IMG/VR virus record: IMGVR_UViG_3300024581_003792
Span: 127,006 to 191,005 of that record
Strand: one strand, 5' to 3'
Origin: a virus
Length of the DNA stretch: 64,000 bases
In this document: positions 42,448-62,145 of the stretch, in pieces
How positions within the stretch are numbered: the first letter of the stretch is position 1
Layout of the letters: every line of letters starts with the position of its first letter
The notes under the pieces: generated by a model
Told to the model about the DNA's origin: nothing
Database searches by the model: none
What the model saw: the letters and a program-made list of their open reading frames with translations, nothing else
Made by a program: the position numbers and the translations under genes

Positions 42448-43254
42448 TTATTCGGGGCGTTTGCCTAAAGGTTTTCCGTCTTGGCCAATTTCGCCAGCTC
42501 TAATTTTTGTAGCAGATACTTCTTGTAGTTCTTTGCTTAACTCAAGTTGTTCGATATTGTAACCAACACCTCTGCCATAAAACACATCCATGATATTCGG
42601 TAGTTCAACAACTTTAATTTTATTGCCAAATTCTACGCATGCAGAATGAATCTCTGCTTTTACTTTATCAAAGTCATATGGATTTTTTTCATCGATTCCA
42701 CCCACATCTCTTAGCGCTATACAGCACTGCCCAGTTCTTTTGATTGCTTCTGCAACTAAAGTTTTATGTCCAATATGAAAAGGTTGATATCTACCTATGA
42801 GAAGCGCGGTTGGAGCTTGATTATCCCATTTTTCTGTCTCGTTTAATTTTTCTACGACTTTTTCTGCCCATTCATCTGCTGTGCCTTCAGTTAATCTAAC
42901 ATCATAGTTAAGTGGGCGCTCAAACATTTTATTAGTATCCTCGTATCTGCCCTCCATGATTCTATCTACCCATACTACAAAGTCGGCGCCAAAAGCTTTT
43001 CGTGTTTCTTGTGTCGGGCATACGAAGTCGGCGATAACATATCCTCCACCTAGCTTAGCCCAATCGCAAAGCTTCCCCATTCTTGTGGCATGCGCTAATC
43101 TATCTTCTGGTGAAAATCCTAACTCTGAATATATATCCTGCCTAACTGCATCTGCATTAAACCATGCGGCGTTAAGTTTCCGAACTAAGATTTCGGCTAA
43201 TGTTGTCTTTCCTGAGCCAGGAAGACCCATAATGAGAATTTTTCTTTTAGTCAT
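42448..43254 (-). CDS. APS-kinase-like P-loop kinase fused to an HxGH nucleotidyltransferase
   Basis: GLPGSGKTTLA, NADAVR, DFVCP, then GRYQPFHIGH and VSATKIR; ATG 43254 preferred. Confidence 0.78.
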   Translation of the reverse strand: MTKRKILIMGLPGSGKTTLAEILVRKLNAAWFNADAVRQDIYSELGFSPEDRLAHATRMGKLCDWAKLGGGYVIADFVCPTQETRKAFGADFVVWVDRIMEGRYEDTNKMFERPLNYDVRLTEGTADEWAEKVVEKLNETEKWDNQAPTALLIGRYQPFHIGHKTLVAEAIKRTGQCCIALRDVGGIDEKNPYDFDKVKAEIHSACVEFGNKIKVVELPNIMDVFYGRGVGYNIEQLELSKELQEVSATKIRAGEIGQDGKPLGKRPE

Positions 43255-43259
43255 GAAAT

Positions 43260-43268
43260 ATATTACAT
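43260..43268 (-). promoter_or_regulatory. GTGTA-class variant (ATG-TAATAT)
   Basis: One mismatch; ATG 6 nt downstream on the minus strand. Confidence 0.4.
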
Positions 43269-43295
43269 CTAAAATCATTTTTGAAGAAAAAAAAC

Positions 43296-43324
43296 TTGAC
43301 TTTCAATTCAATATCTAGTATACT
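43296..43324 (+). promoter_or_regulatory. Sigma70-type promoter
   Basis: TTGACT-17-TATACT preceded by an A-tract (UP-like). Confidence 0.85.
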
Positions 43325-43337
43325 CTTTTTATTAATT

Positions 43338-43550
43338 ATGAAAATCATTAGAAAAAATGTAACTAAGGATGCAGACTCAGTCTATGTTGTAACTAGACAT
43401 GGTCGCAGAGTCGAAGAAGTTAATTATAAAGTGAAGCACGAGGCAGAGTATCGAGCTTATCAACTTCAAGATATGGTCAAACAATATGATCACACTTCAG
43501 TGGGTAAAATTGATATAGTTTACACTTCTAAACCATATAAAATTTATTAA
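43338..43550 (+). CDS. Hypothetical protein
   Basis: 70-aa ORF from the first ATG after the promoter, coupled to dut. Confidence 0.7.
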   Translation: MKIIRKNVTKDADSVYVVTRHGRRVEEVNYKVKHEAEYRAYQLQDMVKQYDHTSVGKIDIVYTSKPYKIY

Positions 43551-59149: not shown

Positions 59150-59158
59150 GTGTAAATA
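59150..59158 (+). promoter_or_regulatory. GTGTA-class promoter motif
   Basis: GTG-TAAATA, ATG 7 nt downstream. Confidence 0.6.
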
Positions 59159-59164
59159 TACATT

Positions 59165-59875
59165 ATGAAAAAAATTTTAGGAGTATATCATCTAGCTTGC
59201 ATGAATCACTATATTGATGTTTTTTGCGAACAATTTGATTTACTACATTCTAGTGGATTATATAAAGCCTGTAATAAATTATTGATTTACATAAGTAAAT
59301 ATGATGATAACCCCATATTAAATAATAAATTAAAAGAATATGATCCTGATGATAAATTTTTAATATTTACATCAGAAGAGAACTTAAAAGAAAAATTTGC
59401 AATAAATGATTTTCGCAACCATATAAGCGATGAACGTTATATGTTTTACTTCCATTCAAAAGGTGTCTCTAGAGAAATCAGTGCTCCACAGCAAGTATGG
59501 CGGAAAAATTTAGATTTTTACACAATTAGTAAATGGAAAATTAGCTTAGACCTGCTTAAAGAATATGACGCAGTAGGTTGTTTTTTGACTAGATGGCCTG
59601 TGCATCATTTCTCAGGAAATTATTGGTGGGCAAAAATAGATTATATTATTGACTTGTCTCACTGTGAACATCATTACCTCGCTCCAGAAATGTGGCTAGG
59701 TGCTAACTTTAATAATAATTTTATATCTCTATCTAACGATAAGAGATGGCAAATGGACATACATTTAGCGAGAACTGATGAAGATATACTGAAAAATATT
59801 ACTAGCTCGATACTTAATAACACATATTTTAAAAATAAACCATATTTCAAACGGTATTACTTAAACAAACAATAA
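59165..59875 (+). CDS. Glycan-cluster protein with YxHxKG / SGNxWW motifs
   Basis: FYFHSKG, YDAVG, HFSGNYWWAK, LAPEMWL; function unknown. Confidence 0.6.
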   Translation: MKKILGVYHLACMNHYIDVFCEQFDLLHSSGLYKACNKLLIYISKYDDNPILNNKLKEYDPDDKFLIFTSEENLKEKFAINDFRNHISDERYMFYFHSKGVSREISAPQQVWRKNLDFYTISKWKISLDLLKEYDAVGCFLTRWPVHHFSGNYWWAKIDYIIDLSHCEHHYLAPEMWLGANFNNNFISLSNDKRWQMDIHLARTDEDILKNITSSILNNTYFKNKPYFKRYYLNKQ

Positions 59876-59907
59876 AACAGAACCCCTGACTTATTAAAAG
59901 ATTTAAA

Positions 59908-60528
59908 ATGAAAACTAACCCAATTAATATTGGCAGAGCAAAACTTATTCAAAGGCTCATCGAAAAAATTGATGCGCAATCATATTTGGAGATAGGTGTT
60001 GGCGACAATAAAGTTTTTGAGAGCATTAAATGCGTTAATAAAGTATCCGTTGATCCATGTACAAGTGATGGATCGAAATACATAAAGCCAACATTTAAGA
60101 TGACGTCTGATGAATTTTTCCAGCAAAACAAAAAAACTTTTGATGTTATTTTTATTGACGGCATGCATAAAGCTGAATATGTAGAAAGAGATATCAATAA
60201 TTCAATATCTTGTTTAAATCATGAAGGTTACATTGTTTGCCACGATATGAATCCACTCACAAAAGCATCGCAAATTGTGCCTAGAATACAGCCCTATTGG
60301 CATGGTGATGTATGGAAAGCATGGGTGAACATCAGGCAAACTAATCCTAATCTTAGTATGTGTGTAATCCCCGAAGATTGTGGCTTAGGAATTATACAAA
60401 AAGGATCGCAAAAACTTTTGGACATTAAGGATCTAGATATTACTTATGAGAATTTAGAAAAACATAGAGAAGAATGGTTAAATTTAGTTAGCTTAGATTT
60501 ATTTTTAATGCGGAATTTATGTACATAA
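59908..60528 (+). CDS. Class I SAM-dependent methyltransferase
   Basis: SYLEIGV, SDEFF, FDVIFIDGMH, IVCHD, WHGDVWKA. Confidence 0.82.
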   Translation: MKTNPINIGRAKLIQRLIEKIDAQSYLEIGVGDNKVFESIKCVNKVSVDPCTSDGSKYIKPTFKMTSDEFFQQNKKTFDVIFIDGMHKAEYVERDINNSISCLNHEGYIVCHDMNPLTKASQIVPRIQPYWHGDVWKAWVNIRQTNPNLSMCVIPEDCGLGIIQKGSQKLLDIKDLDITYENLEKHREEWLNLVSLDLFLMRNLCT

Positions 60529-61367
60529 TATTAGGAAAAAACGGATATATAGCAGAAGCTTTAATTAAAGAATTAAAGTCACGCGATTTACCCCATGTCG
60601 CATGGAGTAGAAGCGAGGTAGATTATACAAATCTTGCAGAGCTCAAATACAATCTTTATATTTTGGGGGACGACTTGCATATAATTAATTGTGCGGGATA
60701 TATCGGCAAGCCAAATGTTGACGCTTGTGAATTAGCAAAGGCTGATTGTATAGAAGGCAATGTTTTGCTTCCTGCAATGTTAGCTCAATTGTGTCTCGAA
60801 AATAAATATGATTTTACGCAAATATCCTCAGGTTGCATTTATGGTGGATACGAAAAAGACTTTACTGAACAAGATGCTCCTAATTTTGATTTCCAAAATG
60901 GTAGTTTTTATAGCGGAACAAAAGCTCTTGCAGAGAAAGTTGTACTGCAAAATAATCCAAATAGTCATGTGTTCAGATTGCGTATTCCTTTTGATGAATA
61001 TGCATCTCCAAGAAACTACTTAACAAAACTATTATCTTACGACACTTTGTTAGATGCAGAAAATTCTTTATCTCATCGTGCAGATTTTGCTAAATATGTA
61101 ATGGAGTTGATTAACCAAGAAGTACCGCATGGAATTTATAATGTTACAAATAAAGGTAGCGTCACCACAAAAGATGTTGTTCAATTAATTAAAAAATATA
61201 ATTTATCAGATAAAGATTTTAAATTTTTTGATAATTTAGAGTCTTTTGGCAAAGAGACAGTCGCCCCAAGATCAAATTGTGTATTGGATACGACTAAGAT
61301 AGAGCAGTATATAAAAATAAGAACAGCAACAGAAGCGCTAGAAGATGCATTATCCAAATATAACTAA
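60519..61367 (+). CDS. RmlD-like NDP-4-keto-6-deoxyhexose (epimerase)/reductase
   Basis: LGKNGYIA, INCAGYIGKPNVDACE, SSGCIY, SFYSGTK, LRIP, PRN. Confidence 0.8.
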   Translation: MYIILGKNGYIAEALIKELKSRDLPHVAWSRSEVDYTNLAELKYNLYILGDDLHIINCAGYIGKPNVDACELAKADCIEGNVLLPAMLAQLCLENKYDFTQISSGCIYGGYEKDFTEQDAPNFDFQNGSFYSGTKALAEKVVLQNNPNSHVFRLRIPFDEYASPRNYLTKLLSYDTLLDAENSLSHRADFAKYVMELINQEVPHGIYNVTNKGSVTTKDVVQLIKKYNLSDKDFKFFDNLESFGKETVAPRSNCVLDTTKIEQYIKIRTATEALEDALSKYN

Positions 61368-62145
61368 AGAATTTATCGATAAACTATTAATTTTTGGCGC
61401 CGAACTTTCTAAAGAAGTTTGCCAAATACAAGAGCGCGGTTTTGAAACTTTACAAAAAGATGACAAAAGCCCATTAACAGAAGCTGATCTTCATTCTAAT
61501 AAAAGAATAAGAGAATTTTTATTCGCAAACACAGAAACAACCAACATCATTTCTGAAGAAGATAAAGAAATCAACTACAAAGAACGCTCTGAATGGGATT
61601 ATTATTGGCTCATAGACCCCATAGACGGCACAAAAGAGTTCGTAAAGGGTGGAGATGACTTCTGCATCAATATTGCCCTATGTAAAGGCTCGGAGCCTGT
61701 ATTCGGCTATGTAGCTTGTCCCAAGAAGCAAGATCAATACTTCGCCATAAAAGATCGTGGCGCTTTTAAAAACGGCGAACCAATTTATGCCAAATATTCT
61801 TACAATCCACAGGGCGAACCAATCAAGGTAGTTGCAAGTAAATCTCACTTAAACGAAGAAACAGAGGAATTTATTAATAATTTAAAAAAGAATCACGAGG
61901 TTGAGACTTTAAATATTGGCAGTTCATTAAAATTTTGTTTAGTTGCAGAAGGAGAAGCCCACATTTATCCAAGATTTGGTCCGACCATGGAATGGGATAC
62001 TTGCGCGCCACAAATAATCGCAGAGGAAAGCGGAGCCACAGTTCTTATTGAAGGTACAAATCAGCGCTTGAACTATAACAAAGAAAATCTTCTTAATCCA
62101 TTTTTTATTGTTTCTTGTAAAATTTTCAAATATTTCTTGACTTGA
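61345..62145 (+). CDS. cysQ: 3'(2'),5'-bisphosphate nucleotidase (PAP phosphatase)
   Basis: KDDKSPLTEAD, IISEE, LIDPIDGTKEF, GSSLKFCLVAEG, PTMEWDT. Confidence 0.92.
   Translation: MHYPNITKEFIDKLLIFGAELSKEVCQIQERGFETLQKDDKSPLTEADLHSNKRIREFLFANTETTNIISEEDKEINYKERSEWDYYWLIDPIDGTKEFVKGGDDFCINIALCKGSEPVFGYVACPKKQDQYFAIKDRGAFKNGEPIYAKYSYNPQGEPIKVVASKSHLNEETEEFINNLKKNHEVETLNIGSSLKFCLVAEGEAHIYPRFGPTMEWDTCAPQIIAEESGATVLIEGTNQRLNYNKENLLNPFFIVSCKIFKYFLT

Follow-up and report, generated by a model that had tools for sequence, protein, structure and literature searches.

The capsid glycans of chlorovirus PBCV-1, the fibril glycans of Mimivirus and the glycans of mycobacteriophages are built in the cytoplasm, without a lipid carrier, by virus-borne soluble glycosyltransferases, nucleoside diphosphate (NDP)-sugar enzymes and sugar methyltransferases. 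For none of these three systems, to our knowledge, does the described glycan chemistry include sulfation. In mycobacteriophages the O-glycans are carried on the capsid and tail tube (Freeman et al. 2023, as cited in PMC12619734). Among bacteria, the rhizobial nodPQ-nodH and Xanthomonas raxPQ-raxST systems pair a sulfotransferase with dedicated sulfate-donor genes, apart from assimilatory sulfate reduction; each has a canonical CysDN-type ATP sulfurylase with an adenosine 5'-phosphosulfate (APS) kinase, and one sulfotransferase. Here we describe a set of genes for building and sulfating glycans in a 213,830-bp virus genome from IMG/VR (record IMGVR_UViG_3300024581_003792, rated complete by CheckV). 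The window that we analysed is a 64,000-nucleotide stretch, bases 127006-191005 of this record, and coordinates below are window positions unless stated otherwise. We conclude from the gene content that this phage probably has the enzymes for a cytoplasmic assembly line, which would produce heavily decorated glycans, with virion protein as the most likely acceptor.

To the kind of gene set seen in the virion-glycosylating viruses, this phage adds 11 sulfotransferases, a phosphatase for 3'-phosphoadenosine 5'-phosphate (PAP) and a candidate maker of the sulfate donor 3'-phosphoadenosine 5'-phosphosulfate (PAPS), all known here from genes alone, and its scale is much larger than that of known phage glycan systems. 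Unlike the nod and rax systems, it has no canonical sulfurylase; it has instead an APS-kinase domain with a shortened lid, joined to an HxGH domain of 120 aa, together with CysQ and the 11 sulfotransferases. The fusion has the same domain order as PAPS synthases (human PAPSS1 and PAPSS2; Aquifex Sat-CysC, PDB 2gks), an APS kinase followed by a nucleotidyltransferase-superfamily domain, and its N-domain matches theirs, but its C-domain has no PF01747 match and, at ~120 aa, is far shorter than the catalytic region of a sulfurylase. Members of the same sulfotransferase and kinase families are annotated in Ralstonia phage phiRSL1 (ORF232/ORF238) and Stenotrophomonas phage DLP6, which carry one sulfotransferase, compared with 11 plus CysQ and two large islands here. 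In full-text literature searches, phage sulfotransferases appeared only as single annotated genes or in counts of sulfotransferase "auxiliary metabolic genes", and there was no description of phage-made sulfated glycans or of a pathway such as this one. The moraphage paper PMC12619734 makes no mention of sulfation and gives no evidence that it concerns this lineage. What is new is the presence in one phage of gene sets resembling those for virion glycosylation and for a private PAPS supply, with 11 sulfotransferases and CysQ and without a canonical sulfurylase.

The genome has two glycan islands, which together span ~45 kb, about one fifth of its length. Island 1 lies at 97-131 kb of the genome and ends at window position 4184, and island 2 occupies window positions 50093-61367. 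Combined, they contain at least 13 glycosyltransferases (GTs) of many families, as well as methyltransferases, a pyruvyltransferase and NDP-sugar enzymes. A first-pass annotation of the window had proposed a phage-encoded glycan sulfation pathway with its own PAPS cycle. Its list of genes was nearly all right, and its observation is confirmed, but the system is larger than it noted, the cluster that it described being only half; its interpretation is partly supported. The features in the window that belong to the system, or frame it, are as follows.

11-4184, plus strand: 3' end of island 1, with two open reading frames (ORFs) without assignment, a methyltransferase (1485), a sulfotransferase (2024), a methyltransferase (2617) and a GDP-sugar epimerase/reductase (3192)
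42448-43278, minus strand: fusion of an APS-kinase-like N-domain and a minimal HxGH adenylyltransferase C-domain (P0001; PF01583, 45.9 bits)
48855-49253, plus strand: small HxGH nucleotidyltransferase, RfaE-domain-II/TagD-like (CTP_transf_like, 58.4 bits; TIGR02199, 75 bits, under cut-off)
49250-49759, plus strand: family I inorganic pyrophosphatase, left frame of island 2 (PF00719, 161.7 bits, full length)
50093-50911, plus strand: GT-A fold glycosyltransferase, GT8-like (ESM Atlas structure, template modelling (TM) score 0.66 to GT8 clusters; no Pfam match; AGTGTA motif upstream)
50919-51764, plus strand: divergent sulfotransferase (ESM Atlas features, 0.96; structure, TM 0.64 to galactose-3-O-sulfotransferase clusters; Lys/Arg/Ser kept)
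51846-52535, plus strand: protein without Pfam match, possibly a glycosyltransferase (weak Atlas lead to Gb3_synth/GT8; homologs in the islands of relatives G005 and G016)
52519-53223, plus strand: sulfotransferase (PF03567, 42 bits; motifs aligned)
53281-54315, plus strand: sulfotransferase with a ~150-aa insertion (PF03567, 33.7 bits, in the C-terminal half at residues 187-341; the N-terminal 5'-phosphosulfate-binding motif aligns)
54328-55119, plus strand: GT25 glycosyltransferase (PF01755, 64.2 bits)
55079-56029, plus strand: GT2 glycosyltransferase (PF00535, 45.9 bits)
56036-56734, plus strand: GT25 glycosyltransferase (PF01755, 45.2 bits)
56721-59147, plus strand: four tandem sulfotransferase paralogs starting at 56721, 57288, 57903 and 58518 (PF03567, 55-70 bits each; within the paralog cluster)
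59165-59875, plus strand: 236-aa protein, no Pfam or NCBIfam match (AGTGTA motif upstream)
59908-60528, plus strand: S-adenosylmethionine-dependent methyltransferase (Methyltransf_24, 33.9 bits)
60519-61367, plus strand: RmlD-like NDP-4-keto-sugar reductase (PF04321, 81.2 bits; TIGR01214, 64.7 bits, under cut-off)
61345-62145, plus strand: CysQ-type 3'(2'),5'-bisphosphate nucleotidase, a predicted PAP phosphatase, right frame of island 2 (PF00459 Inositol_P, 168.4 bits)

The annotated glycosyltransferases at 54328, 55079 and 56036 stand, as does the GT-A/GT8-like fold at 50093, and so do the three methyltransferases (Methyltransf_24 at 1485, 2617 and 59908) and the two NDP-sugar epimerase/reductases (short-chain dehydrogenase/reductase (SDR) proteins at 3192 and 60519). 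Island 1 extends ~30 kb upstream of the window (loci L001 and L002). This upstream part encodes a GDP-mannose 4,6-dehydratase (Gmd, 350 bits), two SDR epimerase/dehydratases, a UDP-glucose dehydrogenase and a CMP-sugar synthetase, along with an HpcH-type aldolase, a sialyltransferase-like protein, a NodZ-like fucosyltransferase, a polysaccharide pyruvyltransferase and three sulfotransferases. Its glycosyltransferases are of the GT2, GT2/GT7C, GT17, GT31-like, GT90 and Nucleotid_trans (two members) types.

There are 11 sulfotransferase paralogs in the genome, eight of them in the window (seven found by Pfam and one divergent) and three just upstream. Sulfotransfer_2 (PF03567) is matched above its curated cut-off of 22 bits at 2024, 52519, 53281, 56721, 57288, 57903 and 58518 in the window and at 10 places genome-wide. 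Because none of 14 control genomes has a match, compared with 10 places in this 214-kb record, the abundance of sulfotransferases is not due to chance. BLASTP clustering of all ORFs puts 10 of the paralogs into one group, and 50919 brings the total to 11; the latter, without a match in Pfam and NCBIfam searches, was recognised by its Atlas features, its structure and its conserved Lys, Arg and Ser. None of these three residues (Lys15, Arg54 and Ser62) varies among the 11 paralogs (alignment A1), and they sit in the motifs hIPKxGGTS and FTxxRNPxDRxxS, which we take to be the 5'-phosphosulfate (Lys) and 3'-phosphate (Arg, Ser) binding motifs of PAPS-dependent sulfotransferases. All eight sulfotransferases claimed for the window are thus upheld, as is the dense set of glycan and sulfation genes, with the PAPS-binding motifs intact across the 11 paralogs. 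Among the tandem genes at 56721-59147, the middles of the proteins diverge while their last ~25 residues are near-identical in the protein alignment, a pattern that would be consistent with cassette exchange or gene conversion.

We surveyed 17 large records of the same lineage together with this phage (G000) and found between 0 and 11 Sulfotransfer_2 genes per record. The only records with CysQ are G000, G001, G014 and G016, whose counts of these genes are 10, 7, 11 and 11, respectively. Expressed as counts, CysQ occurs in 4 of the 6 records with at least seven sulfotransferases and in none of the 12 that have at most four (Fisher one-sided p ~0.005, computed by hand). This relationship between CysQ and sulfotransferase dosage suggests that removal of PAP limits heavy sulfation. 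G002 (200 kb, complete) and G012 (a fragment) are the only records without a sulfotransferase of any family, and they also lack CysQ, the fusion and the pyrophosphatase. The first-pass annotation had proposed co-occurrence as a check on its pathway: for CysQ, the PAP phosphatase does track a high number of sulfotransferases; for the fusion and the pyrophosphatase, G002 and G012 fit, G003 has no fusion, and the pyrophosphatase is also found in sulfotransferase-poor relatives. Some of the survey data weigh against a sulfation pathway of the proposed kind. Three of the four CysQ-bearing records are close kin, so there are about two independent lineages; G003 has nine sulfotransferases with neither fusion nor CysQ, and G005 has nine without CysQ (these records are possibly incomplete).

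The survey also showed that island 2 is unstable between its frames. In G001, whose polymerase is 90% identical, the gene order is nucleotidyltransferase, pyrophosphatase, one small ORF and CysQ, with all of island 2 missing. In G016 the pyrophosphatase/CysQ frame encloses a different island, with six sulfotransferases that are 31-55% identical to those here. Island 2 is therefore a hypervariable cassette region between conserved genes related to PAPS and pyrophosphate. Fast turnover of this sort typically marks loci that make a product exposed to a co-evolving partner. G005 and G016 also have the glycosyltransferase gene of 50093 at the edge of their islands.

The frame genes themselves are readily classified, but differ in what they say about sulfate. 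The CysQ homolog scores 228.7 bits with TIGR01331 (cut-off 228.8), and it closes the cluster as had been claimed. The absence of sulfate-reduction genes, first remarked on for the window, extends to the whole genome, in which there is no member of the PAPS_reduct family (CysH/CysD). The assignment of 49250 as a pyrophosphatase is secure from its Pfam match, and it scores 154.9 bits with the NCBIfam equivalog NF002317 (cut-off 200). It is not specific to sulfate activation: it is translationally coupled to the RfaE-II-like nucleotidyltransferase gene at 48855, whose 3' end its own start overlaps, and it occurs in sulfotransferase-poor relatives (it was found in 9 of the 17 relatives, including some with one or two sulfotransferases). 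The same two genes adjoin each other in G001 and G016. The product of 48855, previously called a cytidylyltransferase, is indeed an HxGH nucleotidyltransferase, but it resembles RfaE domain II/TagD more than a proven cytidylyltransferase.

The fusion gene probably starts at 43254, because its homologs are 267-268 aa long. Its PF01583 match is above the cut-off but partial, covering positions 5-91 of a 152-position model; the protein has a shortened lid, and there is no full-length match to an APS kinase profile (TIGR00455, 40 bits with a cut-off of 138.7). The score with NF004040 is 37.9 bits (cut-off 669). Sequence matches of the N-domain in the PDB are to APS kinases only. The best 50 Foldseek matches of its AlphaFold2 model (predicted local distance difference test (pLDDT) score 92.8) are likewise all APS kinases, and TM scores by target are 0.55-0.78 for stand-alone APS kinase chains. 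The P-loop, Asp43, Arg46, Phe55, Arg60 and an FVCP segment are conserved in 53 members of the family, which range down to 34% identity; we take Asp43/Arg46, Phe55, Arg60 and FVCP to be the APS-binding DGDxxR, GF, DR and FISP elements of APS kinases. The C-domain, ~120 aa long, carries GRxQPFHxGH, an invariant YGRDVGY and ISATxIR. Compared with Thermus ATP sulfurylase it has a Z-score of 8.5 over 117 residues, which indicates a shared superfamily only. As modelled, the domain pair would then consist of an adenylyltransferase and a kinase like that phosphorylating the 3'-OH of the adenylylated product; PAPS synthase and CoA synthase both follow this logic. The fusion family is very large and marine, with more than 6,000 sequence clusters. 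The two domains are encoded by separate adjoining genes in contigs L206, L212 and L217. Stand-alone C-domain homologs are on contigs shorter than 1.1 kb, whose neighbourhoods are uninformative, as are those of P0123, P0127 and P0245.

We propose that the parts would work together as follows. The sulfotransferases would draw on PAPS to decorate the glycan with different sulfate esters, and CysQ would clear the inhibitory PAP that accumulates under a high sulfotransferase load. The pyrophosphatase would pull nucleotidyltransfer forward, in NDP-sugar formation and possibly in sulfate activation. The fusion would raise the supply of PAPS, at least by phosphorylating host-made APS, and possibly by converting sulfate and ATP to PAPS as a miniature PAPS synthase. 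The acceptor of the glycan would be a phage protein made in the cytoplasm, most plausibly the tail fibres, rich in Ser, Thr and Asn, or another virion protein. Such a scheme would be like the virion glycosylation of chloroviruses and mycobacteriophages, but with sulfate on the glycans.

We lean towards the view that the fusion supplies PAPS, and consider it possible, though rather doubtful, that its C-domain adenylylates sulfate. About as tentative is the alternative that the fusion has nothing to do with sulfation, and makes or salvages another adenylylated cofactor (of NAD, CoA or ADP-ribose type) for general nucleotide metabolism or counter-defence, with PAPS made wholly by the host. The genomic context in this lineage favours PAPS. 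The fusion adjoins CysQ in G014, is ~1 kb from two sulfotransferases in G006, lies between a nine-sulfotransferase island and the pyrophosphatase in G005 (where it adjoins the latter), and is beside an island and next to the pyrophosphatase in G004. G010 lacks Sulfotransfer_2 genes; there, the distance from the fusion to a Sulfotransfer_3/1 gene within an island of glycosyltransferases and methyltransferases is 4.7 kb. Adjacency to sulfotransferases recurs in two unrelated phages: on the small phage contig L180 a fusion homolog overlaps the end of a 586-aa Sulfotransfer_3 gene, and on L210 a homolog is directly 3' of a Sulfotransfer_3 gene. When cultured-phage records were searched by tblastn with 57903 as query, only DLP6, phiRSL1 and one uncultured 462-kb phage were hit, and all three match the kinase too. 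Together with the APS-kinase-only matches of the N-domain, its conserved residues, and the absence from this genome of the NAD-salvage partners NADAR and NadV, these contexts argue against a cofactor role. Other data count against PAPS synthesis. We found no match to ATP sulfurylase (PF01747) at E <= 1 in the whole genome, and the C-domain, modelled alone (pLDDT 90.9), is closest to archaeal NMNAT, PPAT and NadM (Z 10.2-10.3). Full-length homologs in Casjensviridae, 38-40% identical, are in genomes without a sulfotransferase. Sulfotransferases were not found in 22 of 24 diverse viral contigs with fusion homologs (mostly fragments), and the neighbours in those 22 are replication and nucleotide-metabolism genes, with some contigs resembling T4-type phages. 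In two of the Casjensviridae homologs (Xylella phage Bacata and Stenotrophomonas phage Bhz60; L003/L004) the gene overlaps a NADAR-domain gene, near a MazG-like pyrophosphatase, as a cofactor role might predict. Genomes of the candidate host group, Opitutales, contain only canonical CysC or CysN-CysC matches, consistent with a host supply of PAPS; the fusion is not among them, so it was not taken from that group. As far as genes can be recognised, the phage's "own PAPS cycle" is incomplete, with an APS-kinase-like N-domain and CysQ but no ATP sulfurylase; PAPS synthesis of its own is plausible. A 13.6-bit match in phage Bacata, first taken for a sulfotransferase, proved to be a terminal ORF that is unrelated. 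Separately, in TARA contigs L174-L176 a 42%-identical fusion homolog is beside a pyruvate-kinase-like gene in a nonulosonic-acid-like sugar cluster, which includes an aminotransferase, a methyltransferase, a GFO/IDH/MocA oxidoreductase, a CMP-sugar synthetase and a dehydratase.

The first-pass annotation had named three places where the glycans might end up: the host surface, the phage fibres and the phage DNA. A cytoplasmic acceptor, most likely virion proteins, is favoured because there are no membrane segments, no genes for a lipid carrier, flippase or polymerase, and no known route to hydroxymethyl bases; we infer it from absences only, which weighs against it. By a hydropathy scan we found no hydrophobic or membrane segment in any protein of either island. 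Scans of the genome by hydropathy and annotation, with no family-specific searches made, revealed no Wzx-/Wzy-like multi-pass protein, priming transferase, transporter or ligase; the sole multi-pass candidate is a 401-aa ORF with four hydrophobic segments near the replication module (10907-12112, plus strand; no Pfam or PHROG match). A self-contained surface-polysaccharide pathway is disfavoured by the lack of membrane segments and of Wzx-/Wzy-like proteins, and with it the host surface as target. We therefore regard it as unlikely, but the strongest of the rivals on this point, that the islands remodel the host envelope, with sulfated and methylated lipopolysaccharide (LPS), capsule or exopolysaccharide blocking superinfection, other phages or grazers. 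The host's own carriers and exporters would then do the membrane steps, and host flippases could make such a target reachable. Conversion of the host surface is the classical use of phage glycan genes, the probable host group is rich in polysaccharide metabolism, the hypervariable islands are like O-antigen loci, and GT25 is annotated as an LPS biosynthesis family. On the other hand, besides the missing priming glycosyltransferase, flippase, polymerase and ligase, no integrase or lysogeny gene turned up (no specific search was made), and ~45 kb would be a very large outlay for a short lytic cycle. The idea of a DNA hypermodification against restriction or CRISPR, in which the glycans would be attached to bases of the phage genome and then sulfated, is very improbable. 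The genome has no match to PF00303 (thymidylate-synthase-type), PF12851 (TET/JBP) or PF00145 (C5 methylase), so glycans on hydroxymethyl bases, and DNA bases as the target, are disfavoured; moreover, 15 or more glycosyltransferases of eukaryote-like families (GT17, GT31, GT90, NodZ) suit long protein glycans better than bases. In its favour are a T4-type dNMP kinase gene and a dUTPase/dCTP-deaminase-like gene near the fusion in the window, and the example of phiRSL1. The phiRSL1 operon (L182, positions 163104-171498 of its record) combines a thymidylate-synthase-family gene, a sulfotransferase, two nucleotidyltransferases, an APS-kinase-like gene and three glycosyltransferases, each annotated in the record as beta-glucosyl-hydroxymethylcytosine-alpha-glucosyltransferase. 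With this operon phiRSL1, a cultured phage, is a candidate for hypermodification of its DNA with sulfated glycans, which is not supported in the phage studied here.

Two properties of the fibre genes bear on virion proteins as acceptor. Five large fibre-like proteins encoded in the window have 26-31% Ser+Thr+Asn, compared with a genome mean of 19.8%. The fibre genes also share an upstream motif with island 2. AGTGTA occurs 47 times in the genome, and 10 of these sites are 15-26 nt upstream of start codons, compared with ~1 expected. Sites in the window are at 18795, 28231, 49839, 50075 and 59150, and the motif is common to the fibre genes 18813 and 28250 and the island genes 50093 and 59165. 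Before 18813 it forms TGTATAAT, like an extended -10 element. The distance from AGTGTA to the start codon is very short, which implies very short or absent leaders. The GTGTA motifs at 50075 and 59150 to which the earlier annotator had pointed are thus real and shared with fibre genes, and this sharing would agree with late expression of the islands, as judged from sequence.

If the products of the assembly line are on virions, they would be a new chemistry in marine phage-host recognition, chiefly for hosts specialised in sulfated algal polysaccharides. A more specific scenario, which we consider improbable, is that fibres or capsid are coated with fucoidan-like sulfated and methylated glycans that mimic the algal polysaccharides foraged by a Verrucomicrobial host, with the fusion acting as a miniature PAPS synthase whose 120-aa HxGH domain replaces ATP sulfurylase. 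The fucoidan-like coat draws on the GDP-fucose-type sugars, the NodZ-like fucosyltransferase and the 11 sulfotransferases. If these enzymes act as proposed, the genome would in addition offer a ready set of compact, soluble sulfotransferases that differ in specificity, and the fusion, if it makes PAPS, would be a very small PAPS synthase, useful in biocatalysis.

That the virus is a phage, as had been supposed, follows from its replication and structural genes and from the IMG/VR record. The phage encodes a RecA-like protein, a DnaB helicase, a primase, a PD-(D/E)XK nuclease and a DnaE-type polymerase with separate exonuclease subunits, as well as a virion structural protein, a tail-repeat fibre protein and a Lon-like protease. 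It is probably a lytic-looking marine jumbo phage infecting Opitutales (Verrucomicrobiota). A polymerase 58-98% identical to its own is encoded on more than 580 IMG/VR contigs, several of them 180-205 kb long. DNA-level searches of GenBank phages with the cluster gave no match, and no cultured phage is alike at the DNA level. Parts of the cluster are present in marine, seawater and estuary metagenomes (nine studies; runs listed as DNA or unclassified), and the run search turned up no RNA runs. Three other features of the window bear on the lineage and its host.

16358-18769, plus strand: Lon-like ATP-dependent protease, 803 aa (phrog_4871, 733 bits), directly 3' of the DnaE-type polymerase gene
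40729-41096, plus strand: full-length tmRNA (Rfam RF00023, 125.9 bits, model positions 1-374)
41104-42384, plus strand: DUF1501 protein, sulfatase-like, of the alkaline-phosphatase superfamily (PF07394, 373.6 bits), neighbour of the fusion

ARAGORN found no tRNA or tmRNA in the window, though Rfam detects the tmRNA. The earlier guess of a host in the Planctomycetes-Verrucomicrobia-Chlamydiae (PVC) group fits the DUF1501 gene, whose product is 70-75% identical to proteins of marine Opitutia/Opitutales metagenome-assembled genomes (MAGs). Two points limit this host assignment: it depends on the single gene DUF1501, and the phage tmRNA is not close to tmRNAs of Opitutales or Mariniblastus, which makes it uninformative on the host. 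The DUF1501 protein is 97% conserved in the relative G001. Its N-terminus has a twin-arginine signal with an RR-x-F-I motif, so it may be a periplasm-directed auxiliary enzyme, and its membership of the sulfation system is uncertain. A 94% match to it is on contig JAYQMT010000004.1 (L094), which is binned as part of a Cellvibrionales MAG and, at 210,818 bp, has a size like that of this phage lineage; the contig is probably a mis-binned genome of a related phage.

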